Positions 2,974-64,000 of a stretch of 64,000 nt of DNA are shown here, piece after piece. A program made the translations under genes and the position numbers. How positions within the stretch are numbered: the stretch's first letter is position 1; every line of letters begins with the position of its first letter. The notes beneath the pieces were generated by a model. It saw nothing but the letters and a program-made list of their open reading frames with translations. It searched no databases and was not told the origin of the DNA. Source of the DNA: Octopus vulgaris (taxonomy: Eukaryota); assembly GCA_951406725.2 (NCBI GenBank), contig OX597826.1:40734001-40798000 (forward strand), in the 5' to 3' direction.

Positions 2974-4530
2974 ATGGAGAAATTACCTACTGACATATCA
3001 CTGAAAGACATTCTGGTCCAACACAGGAAGGACTTTATGAAAGACCTTATTACTAAGACTTTCGCATTCATACATAGAATTCGTTGGATCACTTTTCATC
3101 ATGAAAGGGATATTGTTAAATAAGGAAACTTTCTTAATGAAGATTTTGAAATTTATAAGAAATTCAAAACCAGAAAATTTCCACCTCCTAACCGTCATTT
3201 GAAGGCTTTTGAGAAGGATATATGGAACATCGTCAAGAATACCAAGTTTGTCAAATATCCCCTTAGAGGGAATGAACACCTGTTGAAAATGAAGGCTCTA
3301 GTATGTGAACTAAAAAAAAATAAGAGCAAAAAGGGAATTATTGTACCTTCGGTCAAAACTGGTAATTTATATCGTTTGGATATTCATAGATATCATGAAT
3401 TAATGGAAAATGAAATTACTCCTAACTATAAAGTAGTAAGTAAAAATGTATTAAGATCTATTAACTTAGAAGCTAAAAAAATTATGAGTGATTTTGATCT
3501 TGAAGACAGAACTGAGCCTTTTGTGCCTAGAAAGCCCAAAATCGTTTTGAAAGATCATAAAGATAACTTTTTCTCCAACCCTAAAGTTAGATTAATTTAC
3601 CCAGGCAGTTCCGACCTGGGTAGATTAAGCAAAATTATTCTAGACAAGTATATACCTAAACTTAAAGAAATATTAAAGCTAGATATCTGGTCCAATAGCC
3701 AGGAAGCCATTAATAGGTTTGATAAATTAGATAATAAAAATAGAGGTAAATTCATTCAGTTCGATATTAATAATTATTACTCTTCAGTTAATCCAATTGT
3801 GCTAAATGGTGCACTTATATTCGCTAGGGAAAATTCTAGCCTCAGCTTAAGAGAAATTAAAGTTATTTTGGAAACCAAGAAGTCCATTATTGTATTTGAT
3901 AACAAATACTGGTCCAGAAAAAATACTAATGATTCTTTTGACATAACCATGAGCTCTGCCGATTCCGCTCAGGTTACTGACTTAGTAGGTATGTACACAC
4001 TATCATTTCCATAATGAATTTCCAGACATTAAAGGTGGACTCTATAGAGATGATGCACTATTTTTGGTTAATAGTCAAACCAATAGAAAAATAAACCTAT
4101 ATATGAAAGATTTCCATAATTGTTTCAAAAGACTTGGTTTATCTCTATAGAAAATGAGCATGATTCAGTTAATTACCTGGGTATTAATCTGAACCTTGTT
4201 ACTGGCCTATACAGTCCTTATCACAAACCCAACAATAATTTAAAATATATCAACTTTCATAGTAATCATCCTAAAGCGATCACAAGAACTTTGGTTAATA
4301 ATGTTTCGAGACGTGTTTCTCATATATCCTCTGATGAGGAAATCTTTATTAATATTGCCGAATATTATAATGATGCTCTTCAAAAAGCAGGATACTGGAA
4401 TAGAATAGTATATTGTAATAAGAATGGGAACTGCAATAAATCTTATCATAATAAGGGAAAATTGATTGATAACGAAGTTAGTGGATCTAATAGTAAAAAT
4501 GTATCCAATTTATTCGTAAGTAGTAATGAC
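2974..4530 (+). pseudogene. Penelope-like retroelement reverse transcriptase, disrupted (stop at 3121, frameshifts near 4010 and 4120)
   Basis: Motifs SLKDI...FIHRIRW; KTGNLY; LKDHKDNFFSNPKVRLIYP; FIQFDINNYYSSV; FDITMSSADSAQVTDLVG; GLYRDDAL (4036-4060 region); thumb YHKPNNNLKYINFHSNHP...RRVSHISS...YYNDALQKAGY. No GIY-YIG domain seen. Confidence 0.85.
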
Positions 4531-6213: not shown

Positions 6214-7104
6214 TAAATATAAATTACAAAATGGGACAAGAACGCAAAAACACAAAGAGACGAAACAAAAAAAAAAACAGACGGGTCATTCGAAGCCTCT
6301 AATCTTCAGTCGGGAACCGGATCATCTTAGCAATTTCGGCTGATTAATTCTGATGTCGCTCCGACACGGCCAGCCCCAAAGAAAAACTAAGCTATGAGCA
6401 TTAGATTTCTTGGAAAAAGGATCGAATGTATACGAAACAAGGACAGGATGCCACACGAATATAAATACAAGAAACAAAAAATAGAAATAAAAGACAAGAA
6501 TAGTAATAACAGGACAAAACAGCGGGTGTCTTACGACTTCATACAATTTTTAACTTATCTTGGCTGTCGTATTTTGAAAAAATGCCTTTGCGGCAAACGA
6601 AGACAACAGTGTTAACATGGCAGCGGTCAAGCCGAAAAGACCAGTTTGAGCGGCAGTCACGTGAGAGGACAGAAGAGAGAGAAAGAAAAGCAGGGGGCAA
6701 GGAATCAAAGAGAGAGAGAAAGAAAGGGACAAAGGCACCAAGGGGGAGAAAGAGAGAAGGAAGGAATTAAAGAGGGGAGAAGAAACAGCGTGCCAAGGAT
6801 TGGCTTAGCAATAGAAATAATGGTGCAAAATAAGAAAGACGGAGAAATGTAAGAGAGTGGGGGAAGAATCAGAGGCAAGGAAAGAGAAAGACACAGACTA
6901 TAGAGAAAGTGTGTGTAACGAAGTCGTACAAGGTGGAATGTGCATACATAGGAGATAGGGGTACGTTATGCCGCAATAATATATGTATAGAAACTAAATA
7001 TAAATTACAAAATGGGACAAGAACGCAAAAACACACAAAGAGACGACACAAAAAAACAGACGGGTCATTCGAAGCCTCTAATCTTCAGTCGGGAACCGGA
7101 TCAT
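6209..7104 (-). mobile_element. Non-coding tandem (retrozyme/pLTR-like) element: 781-bp unit plus a ~116-bp terminal direct repeat
   Basis: 6209-6325 is repeated at 6990-7104; GA-rich block 6660-6910; flanked by TA tracts; carries a permuted HHR-like fold. Confidence 0.7.
6298..6405 (-). ncRNA. Decayed non-circularly permuted hammerhead-like ribozyme
   Basis: Minus-strand order TCTAA...GGCTG...AGCGAC-A-TCAGAA...CAGCC-GAAATTGCT...TTCCCGA-CTGAAGA-TTAGA; stem II GGCTG/CAGCC, closing helix TCTAA/TTAGA; U16.1 and stem I are mutated. Confidence 0.55.
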
Positions 7105-7151
7105 GCGTATGAATGCGTGTTTTTATGTGTATACGTATACGTATACACATG

Positions 7152-61591: not shown

Positions 61592-61881
61592 TAATTACAT
61601 GAGACGGCGGGTTTGTAGCTCATCATCACATAGACGAGTCTATTAGTGTCAAAACATGACGTATTAACATCTCCCTGACATTGGAGATGAGCTAAGGAAG
61701 AATGACAGTGTGTGTTTGTATGTACGTCTAATGTGTGTGTGTGTGTGTGTGTAAATAAACATTCATAAATATATACATACACACGCATCTACACACAAAC
61801 ACACACACACACATACACACTCACACGCACACACACACACACACACATACGCACACACACACACATATATATATATATAAT

Positions 61882-62020
61882 TTAATAAATAAAATATATG
61901 CATACATACATACATATATGTACGTACCTACATCTATATGTATATATACAAGCATATATATATGTATATATATATATATATATATGCTTGTATATATACA
62001 TATAGATGTAGGTACGTACA

Positions 62021-62073
<53 letters not shown>

Positions 62074-62155
62074 TAATAAATAAAATATATGCATACATAC
62101 AAACATATATGTACGTACCGACATCTACATGTATATATACATGCATATATAAATA
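61882..62155. repeat. Direct-inverted-direct triplication
   Basis: 61911-61958 is exactly inverted at 61981-62028; 61882-61960 is repeated directly at 62074-62155 with a few substitutions. Confidence 0.85.
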
Positions 62156-62308
62156 TATATAAGTACAGGACACCACAAAAAGACGTAAAACTCAACAGAA
62201 ACGAAAACGGAAAAGCCATTTTGTTACAACAGAAGGACAGAGACGTGGAACAGGACGAAAACGGGAAAAACATTATGTACAACAGAAAAACGAGGTACAG
62301 GAAAAATT

Positions 62309-62422
62309 CCCTTCATCAGCTGTCACTAGCAGACATAGCGTGTTTCGAAGGCAAGACAGGACACGTCTGGTCATGCTAGGCCTTCCTACGAGAGAATTAA
62401 AATAAAATAACCTCGCAGAGGG
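62309..62422 (-). ncRNA. Non-circularly permuted hammerhead ribozyme candidate, copy 1 (GUC; predicted cut between 62360 and 62359)
   Basis: CCCT-[CTGCGAG..CTCGTAG]-GAAGGC-CTAGCA..CGTGT-C-CTGTC-TT-GCCTTC-GAAACACG..TGCTAG-T-GACAG-CTGATGA-AGGG; all core nucleotides intact. Confidence 0.8.
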
Positions 62423-63034
62423 GTAAAACAAGCAAGAAAAAATGTAACACAAAAAGGGACGTAACAGAGAACTGCACAATAAAATACAAGAAAAAAATAC
62501 AAAATTAAAGATATATGTACAAGAAAATACAAAACGAGAAATAAATTACAATACGAGAAATCAAAATAAACAAGAGAACAACGAAAAAGACCAACGGAAG
62601 GCCTTTGTTCTGGCAGGGACGGAAGAGGTAACTGGCGAGCGCTGGGAAACATGACCTTAGGGCCTGAAGGCAACGTACGAAAGGATTAGCAGTGACGAAA
62701 GTGAGGAGGAGTGGGAGAGAGAGAGAGACAGATAGAGGAAGACACGCGGCTGAGAGAAGGGTGAGGAAGAGGGAGAGAGAGAAAGAGAGAGGGGAAGGCA
62801 AAGCAAAGGGAGAGAATTTTCGCGTCATAATATTAAACTATAAAACAAACTGAGAGGATAGAGACGGAACGAAGTGAAAATTCGAAAAATCGAAAATTCA
62901 AACGAACCCGACGCGAGGACAGCACAAATAAACGTAGAACACAACGAGAAACGAAAACATAAAAACAAACTAGGAAACGGACTTTTTTTAACAACGAAAA
63001 AACAGAGTACAAGACAAACAATACAAGGAATATT

Positions 63035-63154
63035 CTCCTTCATCAGCTGTCCCTGGTTCGACTCAATGCGTGTTTCGAAGGTAAGGACAGAACACGATCC
63101 GGTCGAAATAGTCCTTCCTGCAAAAGAATTAAATAAAATTCTTTTGCAGAGGGG
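63035..63154 (-). ncRNA. Non-circularly permuted hammerhead ribozyme candidate, copy 2 (GUU; predicted cut between 63091 and 63090)
   Basis: CCCCT-[CTGCAAAAGAATT..AATTCTTTTGCAG]-GAAGG..TTCGAC..CGTGT-T-CTGTCC-TTA-CCTTC-GAAACACG..GTCGAA..GGACAG-CTGATGA-AGGAG. Confidence 0.8.
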
Positions 63155-63608
63155 TAAAACAAGGAAAGAAAAAAAGTGACAAGAACAGGACGTAAAAGCA
63201 ATACAAATAAAAATACAGTACACATAAAGAATAAAAACAGGACAATGAAACCAACATTGAGGGCTTTTTTTAAGCCTAGACAATGGAAAAATTCGGAGCG
63301 CAATTTAGAATCGACTTTCTAGAGACAGAAAAAGTCGATGTTGACTTGCAGAAAGCTACGAGCAAAAGAAAGATAGTAGTCCACTCAGCAGAGAGAGAGA
63401 TGAGGAGGAGTGAGAGAGAGAGAGGAAAGGAAACCAGAAAGGGTGAAAAATAAGGAGAGATACAGGTAGAGAGGAAGACAGACAGGAAGGAAAGGTCAAG
63501 TAAAGGGTTAGAGAGTGCGCGTCAATGCACATATATATGTCTATACATATATATGTGTGTGTATATGTATACGGACATTTATACACGCGCGCTCGCGCAC
63601 ACATACAC

Positions 63609-63856
63609 ACACGAGTAAGCACACAAATGCAAATCAAGAGAGAAACAAATATTACTCGAATACCTACGGTTAAGTAATATAGTTTTTTTTACTAAAGCGA
63701 CAAAAACAGCAGAAGAGTTTCACGTTTGCGTTCGTCAGACAGCCGTGATCAAGACTGGAATAAAATTTTATTCTTGATCACCACTCCGTCGAACGAGAAC
63801 GTGAAACTCTGAGTCACAGATTCTTGTGATGTTTCTGCAGCTGTAATTTTAAAAAT
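63609..63856. mobile_element. Family B pLTR-like repeat with fold-back and two opposed hammerhead halves
   Basis: 63714-63742 minus: CTGT-CTGACGA-ACG-caaa-CGT-GAAACTCT; 63783-63819 plus: CCGTCGA-ACG-agaa-CGT-GAAACTC-T-GAGT-C-ACAG; central GTGATCAAGA/TCTTGATCAC hairpin. Confidence 0.7.
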
Positions 63857-64000
63857 GTGTGTGTATGTATGTATGTATGTATGTATGTATGTATGTATGT
63901 ATGTATGTATGTGTGTAGGTAGGTAGGTAGGTATGTATGTATGCATGCATCTATGTATATATAGATAGATAGTTATACACACACACATATATATATATAT

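Follow-up and report, generated by a model that had tools for sequence, protein, structure and literature searches.

On the minus strand of the window analysed here, a stretch of 64,000 nucleotides from Octopus vulgaris, a complete hammerhead core is present at each of two sites, 62309-62422 and 63035-63154. Both sites have the same strand order. Read 5′ to 3′, the first half consists of a closing strand (X), a hairpin (Y), a GAAGG strand and the first strand of an interaction helix, and the second half continues with stem III-UH-stem I, a 2-nt linker, stem II-GAAA-stem III, the second strand of the interaction helix, stem I-CUGAUGA and the second strand of X. We refer to this layout, in which the 5′ strand of stem II lies displaced upstream together with G10.1, as a split core. 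An earlier note made from the letters alone had located CUGAUGA, GAAA and GUC or GUU at both sites, and all of these elements lie where it put them; the cleavage positions that it predicted, after 62360 and 63091, do fall at H17 in the sequence. It had also described a closing helix AGGG/CCCU and peripheral helices that change sequence while still pairing. The closing helix is present as described except that copy A has one mismatch in it (AGGAG against CCCCU, with five pairs in family A as a whole). The peripheral pairing is likewise kept, although family A has a longer interaction helix than was stated; its best-preserved copies show about 10 pairs by eye. Copy A carries two further mismatches in this interaction helix.

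The two sites belong to different non-coding Penelope-like families, with an element of family B (876-nt unit) nested in an element of family A (782-nt unit), and the two units are about 70% alike over their 3′ halves. This nesting rules out a tandem of one element with a 731-nt monomer. The coordinates of all features are collected in Table 1.

Table 1. Split-core hammerheads and their host elements in the 64-kb window (- = minus strand).
Feature	Position	Strand	Remark
Split-core non-circularly permuted hammerhead, family B copy	62309..62422	-	predicted cleavage after C62360 (GUC)
Split-core non-circularly permuted hammerhead, family A copy	63035..63154	-	predicted cleavage after U63091 (GUU)
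Copy B, closing helix X 5′ strand and hairpin Y	62386..62422	-	putative two four-way junction arms between A9 and G10.1; covariation
Copy B, closing helix X 5′ strand	62422-62419	-	
Copy B, hairpin Y	62418-62386	-	
Copy B, displaced stem II 5′ strand	62385-62380	-	G10.1 = 62385; covariation
Copy B, stem I-II interaction helix, 5′ strand	62379-62374	-	directly after displaced stem II strand; covariation
Copy B, stem III first strand	62365-62361	-	
Copy B, H17	62360	-	C62360
Copy B, stem I first strand	62359-62355	-	followed by 2-nt linker
Copy B, stem II 3′ strand	62352-62347	-	
Copy B, GAA	62346-62344	-	
Copy B, stem III second strand	62343-62339	-	
Copy B, interaction helix second strand	62331-62326	-	
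Copy B, stem I 3′ strand	62324-62320	-	
Copy B, CUGAUGA	62319-62313	-	
Copy B, closing helix X 3′ strand	62312-62309	-	
Copy A, H17	63091	-	U63091; layout identical to copy B
Copy A, CUGAUGA	63046-63040	-	
Family B non-coding Penelope-like element	62068..62916	-	unit positions 16-877, nearly whole 876-nt unit; ends in (TA)n; inserted in element A
Family A non-coding Penelope-like element	62916..63524	-	unit positions 59-647 of 782
Remainder of element A	61871..62003	-	unit positions 654-785; displaced by B insertion; overlaps short inverted piece 61936-62045
Family F decayed copy, split-core layout	6279..6445	-	
Second family F copy, 5′-cut	about 7040-7105, core at 7088	-	779 nt from first; partial tandem, 779-nt period

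We searched the window with a descriptor of the split-core layout, composed after the sites had been seen, and obtained two matches, which are exactly the two sites. The same descriptor gave no match in 150 locally shuffled windows (2-mers shuffled within 200-nt blocks). Rfam models gave no match at gathering score anywhere in the window; the earlier note had expected standard hammerhead descriptors to miss such a variant. The nested minimum-energy fold of copy B includes X, Y and stem II. That of copy A differs from the proposed fold, which counts against it, as computed by a program that cannot fold pseudoknots.

The elements that carry these sites show the marks of Penelope-like elements, namely 5′ truncation, partial tandems, inverted pieces, (TA)n targets and tails (PMC8557442). 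Among 29 copies of B the 5′ ends are scattered, while 23 of the 3′ ends fall at unit positions 875-877 and another four at 967-977. Nearly all copy ends are followed by TA repeats, a sequence that is very common genome-wide. The unit junction is crossed in nine of the 29 copies, and seven copies are longer than one unit. Partial head-to-tail tandems are common, with spacings of 898, 826 and 776 nt, and the units are mostly dispersed, single or partial. Inverted truncated pieces lie beside elements at four further loci (L011, L033, L041 and L151) and in the window itself at 61936-62045. No long coding frame common to A and B copies was present among 60 loci. One R4/Dong-like LINE frame, recognized by eye on the other strand beside a B copy (L002:1650-3141), was unique among these 60 loci and was rejected as a partner. 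Words resembling a splice donor, branch point and acceptor span the B unit junction, from position 827 to 82 (about 62118 onward in the window). Their arrangement hints at a possible retained intron, about 130 nt long, with an ATG after it that is common to family A, and most B copies terminate inside this putative intron.

We then compared copies across the O. vulgaris genome (2.8 Gb, 227 contigs) using the two sites as well as diverged hits as queries in DNA searches and scoring the best 40 candidates of each. Six families, A to F, keep all six helices while their sequences change. One exact pattern alone gives at least 278 copies, where a control pattern gives none, and at least 127 exact matches were obtained for family E, which carries the Naiad_Ovul/Obim motif (control, none). 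Family F surfaced unprompted through the descriptor, at L135. All three hammerhead stems (I to III) occur together with G10.1-C11.1 and A15.1-U16.1, and each stem has at least one pair that is changed on both sides. A decayed family D copy of the layout also lies about 0.6 kb past the window end, on the strand opposite to A and B (L097:1075-1206, plus strand).

Pairing was quantified in an alignment (A1) of 35 sequences from A, B, B-like and C copies, hand-picked for full length. Overall 92.9% of the cells pair, as opposed to 40-46% for slid partners, and eight of the 30 pairs are changed on both sides; stems I, II and III each contribute one of these. These changes amount to only a handful of events, because they are inherited within families, and the count of pairs changed on both sides, one of five whole-structure measures, did not rise above shuffles (it was reached by 121 of 500), which counts against the split-core hammerhead proposed below. 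The interaction helix pairs in just 79% of cells because its register shifts between families. When the upstream strand is taken as partner, the fourth pair of stem II is G-C in 24 of 35 sequences and C-G in nine, whereas with the downstream GAAGG (after CUGAU) as partner it is lost in nine of the 35. The earlier note had held that an upstream strand supplies G10.1 and that two helices separate it from A9, and had asked for covariation across family copies; stem II covaries with the upstream strand and not with the bases after A9, so that its assignment passed this test.

The differences between families are larger. Stem II reads GAAGG/CCUUC in A and B, GAACG/CGUUC in C and GAGCA/UGCUC in D, with GACAC/GUGUC and GGCUG/CAGCC as the other variants (GGCUGG/CCAGCC over six pairs in F), and G10.1-C11.1 is fixed throughout; in D, E and F most of the stem is altered on both strands. 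Stem III occurs as CGUGU/ACACG, CGCGU/ACGCG, CUCAU/AUGAG and GCAAU/AUUGC, and helix X as CCCCU/AGGGG, CCCU/AGGG, UGACCCU/AGGGUCG and, in F, UUUCUU/AAGAAA. The interaction helix that would connect stems I and II differs in sequence in each family. The stem I-II linker is 2, 2, 2, 5 and 4 nt long in A, B, C, D and F, and the run from A9 through X and Y into G10.1 without unpaired bases, noted earlier for the two window copies, extends to A, B and C and to the majority forms of D and F. Helix X is invariant in A to C and has only three pairs in E, which also counts against the proposed hammerhead.

A covariance model trained on A, B and C alone, with stems I and II left out, finds family D with E-values of about 1e-10 to 1e-12, and the D copy past the window end was turned up by such a model. 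It finds E more weakly (three of three loci, E-value 3e-4 to 0.03) and F likewise more weakly (three of four fetched loci, 0.04 to 1.1). The full set of 11 core bases survives in 29 of 29 copies for B, 25 of 29 for A, 17 of 30 for C, 13 of 30 for D and 25 of 30 for F, the values for A and B being biased towards intact cores because in these two families the copies compared were those that match the window copies best. Against this, most copies are decaying, and of the loci examined the strict descriptor accepts only 14 of 29 for A, 4 of 30 for C, 7 of 30 for D and none of 20 for E. The family also occurs under four organism labels in four runs that consist of contigs; these give no starts, ends or strand, do not distinguish a circle from a genomic tandem, and were weighed neither for nor against.

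Taken on this comparative evidence, the six-helix RNA structure is real and selected. We put at roughly four in five the probability that each window site is a self-cleaving split-core hammerhead, of the same kind as the 3′ ribozyme of Naiad elements, and belongs to the terminal repeat of a Penelope-like retroelement that is non-autonomous. It is unlikely that the fold, once catalytic, now serves as a structural signal (for reverse transcriptase binding, for example) that does not cut or cuts only with the aid of protein. The predicted cleavage triplet is GUU in family A and AUA in family D, which would suit such a signal, and GUU is a slower cleavage site. The genomic copies also run through the site, although this is uninformative since the copies were picked for spanning it. 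What speaks against a purely structural role is that the stems vary freely while the catalytic bases stay fixed in the six families and, by eye, in the covered parts of Naiad consensi from five phyla.

Slightly less probable still is an active form assembled from two neighbouring copies or two molecules, or a monomer that is held off by pairing of G8-A9-A-G-G with CCUUC and switches. Partial tandems are indeed common (898, 826 and 776 nt), and minimal Penelope hammerheads have been proposed to work as dimers (PMC4209133); here, however, all helices are complete inside one copy and stem III has five to six pairs. The off-pairing, which the earlier note had raised as an inactive conformer, is perfect (5/5) in A and B only and drops to 4/5 in C, 3/5 in D and 2/5 in F, so that it is complete in the families of the window copies and not kept in the other three. 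Finally, an ordinary type-SGC hammerhead, a published form (PMC10085705), with an intact CUGANGA block, a weak stem II made from the bases after A9 and an accessory upstream strand, X and Y, is about as improbable, for although that register gives 4/5 pairs in A and B (two of them G-U), it opens with A-C rather than G10.1-C11.1 in all five tabulated families and keeps only 2, 2 and 0 of five pairs in C, D and F, where the upstream strand pairs fully, and the interaction helix begins right after the upstream strand where the SGC model, in the portion of that paper available, puts it after stem II.

The self-cleaving split-core reading leads to the Naiads, a group of Penelope-like elements that Craig et al. 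(2021) describe, in the text available, as being without canonical hammerheads, with some entries, including Naiad_Ovul, marked 'HHR_core' or 'HHR_half_core' (PMC8557442). We parsed by eye the roughly 300-420 nt at the 3′ end of 51 of 54 published consensi (PMC8557442 File S5), without scoring the parses, over a portion of the file that took in the first 58 of its 62 CTGATGA places together with some of the other core words. Within that portion a split core with X, Y and an interaction helix can be read by eye in 10 of the 54 consensi, namely Bfor, 3_Chem, Amil, Aacu, Anas, 2_Movir, Plae, EuTe, Obim and Ovul. The three entries from Acropora are almost the same as one another, as are the two from Octopus, and the ten thus reduce to seven independent cases from five phyla. 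Naiad_Plae may serve as an example, with X as AGAGG/CCUCU, eight pairs in Y, stem II as GGCCCC/GGGGCC, the site GUA and stem I as GAGGA/UCCUC; Bfor has a stem I of only two pairs. Six nematode Naiads (1-3_Nbra, Hcon, Hpol and Asuum) read by eye as type CSG, with one extra base after A9 in Asuum, and Naiad_Smim looks SGC-like with a weak stem II. The remaining 38 consensi were unparsed, twister-like or had nothing in the part seen. The ends of Naiad-1_Movir, Naiad-4_Chem and Naiad_Mley look twister-like. As separate observations from the same portion, GAAA precedes CUGANGA in the ostracod (Dst) and Euprymna Naiad ends, and bivalve and hemichordate Naiads have another conserved 3′ motif in common.

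The octopus genome also links the layout to a reverse-transcriptase remnant. A decayed reverse-transcriptase end lies upstream of one family E copy, and when the 30 best loci for that protein piece were checked, the E motif was found downstream on the same strand in 16 of them, one of which was in the profile. There was a hint by eye only of an N-terminal endonuclease in family E, and Pfam returned nothing relevant. None of these 30 loci has an A-, B-, C- or F-type motif, and hence none is a coding element with such an end; an autonomous partner of A or B was likewise not found among the loci examined. Going by these sequences, the split-core layout is tied to Naiads, and the parent of A and B is not among the loci found. 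The proposed Naiad origin of A and B rests on the common layout, because no coding element with such ends was found. This Penelope-like host and the recurrence in Naiad elements of other phyla go beyond the interpretation in the earlier note. We also observed a young Neptune-like family (L204, L209 and others) with many open frames of 781 amino acids and ends in (TA)n. No split core was seen by eye after its endonuclease in 30 loci; this family is a candidate for supplying A and B with their enzyme. In the window itself, reverse transcriptase frames of Penelope type, now broken, can be recognized by eye at 3124-4500 on the plus strand.

Hammerhead variants were reportedly described by Weinberg et al. 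in 2015. The closest known relatives of the present form are the permuted hammerheads of Eckert et al. (2023), who divide the hammerhead into blocks C, G and S and validated types SGC and CSG as cleaving in vitro, each with a stem I-II linker of about 3 nt and a helix that connects these two stems at their far sides (PMC10085705). In the available part of that paper SGC comes from metatranscriptomes and two CSG sequences from metagenomes, with only one GCS candidate in genomes of known organisms (PMC10085705). The non-circular order of the window sites is that of published type SGC, as the earlier note had suspected: the site block, GAAA block and CUGANGA follow one another in the same cyclic order, and the linker, interaction helix and core are alike. 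The uninterrupted block C of type SGC is not found, since the partner of stem II lies upstream, and the cut between A9 and G10.1 is bridged by two helices, which was assumed impossible there (PMC10085705). Judged from sequence, this is the SGC/CSG cyclic order opened at a new place, between A9 and G10.1. The window forms further differ from those of Eckert et al. in that they sit in animal genomic DNA in hundreds of copies (PMC10085705).

Other hammerheads resemble the window sites in part. The pseudo-LTR hammerheads of Penelope elements (Cervera and de la Pena 2014, PMC4209133) also lie in a repeated end and are assigned a cut-and-circularise role, but they are type I or minimal with a three-way junction and a continuous core, unlike the split core of A and B. 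The non-LTR retrozymes of a recent preprint (Li et al. 2026, 10.64898/2026.07.22.740005) likewise carry a hammerhead in the repeated end of a non-coding unit with the same proposed role; those are tandem units with type I hammerheads, whereas A and B differ in topology and are mostly single or partial units of 780-900 nt. The pseudoknot-containing hammerhead of Zhan et al. (2024, PMC11300833) has an extra helix and a pseudoknot around stem II, as here, yet unlike the split core it runs from A9 straight into G10.1 and places its extra stem on helix I. No A9/G10.1 insertion appears in the available text of Perreault 2011 or Forgia 2023. With respect to the Naiads of Craig et al., the (TA)n targets, 5′ truncation, partial tandems, inverted pieces and tails are alike, and the 3′ motif of Naiad_Obim and Naiad_Ovul has the same split-core layout. 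In contrast, A and B have no coding frame, their tails are about 50-100 nt rather than 30-40 bp, and they are young (best matches 93-99%), where cephalopod Naiads are described as long inactive (PMC8557442).

We propose that X stacks on Y and stem II on the core, so that X, Y, stem II and the core's A9-G12 end meet in a four-way junction. Pairing of A9 with G12 beside G10.1-C11.1 is a feature of solved hammerheads (PMC11300833), and the junction would hold A9 and G10.1 where the backbone normally does so. Counting against such tolerance, no known hammerhead, according to Eckert et al., has more than one to two bases inserted at A9/G10.1 (PMC10085705). The short stem I-II linker and the separate interaction helix would keep stems I and II side by side. 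The core would be complete only once the last strand has been transcribed, whereupon the RNA would be cut after H17. Both cleavage products would stay clamped by X, II, III and the interaction helix, and with four helices clamping them, re-ligation should be favoured. In this way a transcript that reads through a partial tandem could be trimmed to a single unit and circularized, and a Penelope-type reverse transcriptase/endonuclease acting in trans may copy the circle into (TA)n sites, in some cases going round more than once. A cycle of cutting, circle formation and more-than-unit reverse transcription has been put forward for Penelope hammerheads (PMC4209133) and agrees with the observed ends, as would copying from a tandem transcript left uncut.

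We consider it probable that A9/G10.1 is a fourth break point of the hammerhead and that the split core is an old, active and widespread ribozyme of animal Naiads and their non-coding derivatives, beside Naiads of CSG and SGC type. If so, Naiads would be a main genomic home of non-circularly permuted hammerheads rather than ribozyme-free, and duplication and deletion in their tandem ends would be one way for CSG to turn into the split form. This would overturn the view that the hammerhead is made of three indivisible blocks with six possible orders (PMC10085705), and the view that Naiads are without canonical hammerheads and manage without them, which Craig et al. use to question the role of the ribozyme in Penelope-like elements (PMC8557442). 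Non-circularly permuted RNAs, until now from anonymous environmental contigs, would also gain a known host element in the genomes of animals, in which their origin and role are open to testing, and A9/G10.1 would become a possible place for grafting helices into an active hammerhead. The nematode CSG ends, if right, add to a form known in the available text from two metagenomic sequences (PMC10085705). Because the split core is missed by standard descriptors and Rfam, counts of invertebrate ribozymes may fall well short.

The layout may well be undescribed, as the earlier note had supposed: in the full-text literature, where subscription journals are thinly covered, we found no report of a split core and none of permuted hammerheads in Naiads or octopus. 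The same literature yielded permuted hammerheads only from Eckert et al., and Naiads together with hammerheads only in Craig et al., a 2026 preprint in which type I alone was searched, and one fungal genome paper. A hairpin at 63720-63850 of the window, considered as a further new ribozyme, was rejected, since two Penelope-type ends face each other there and their hammerhead is a canonical minimal one of type I that has decayed. The foldback repeat around it (63600-63860) consists of two inverted Penelope-type ends, and its relatives at L060, L141 and L002 retain CTGATGA.
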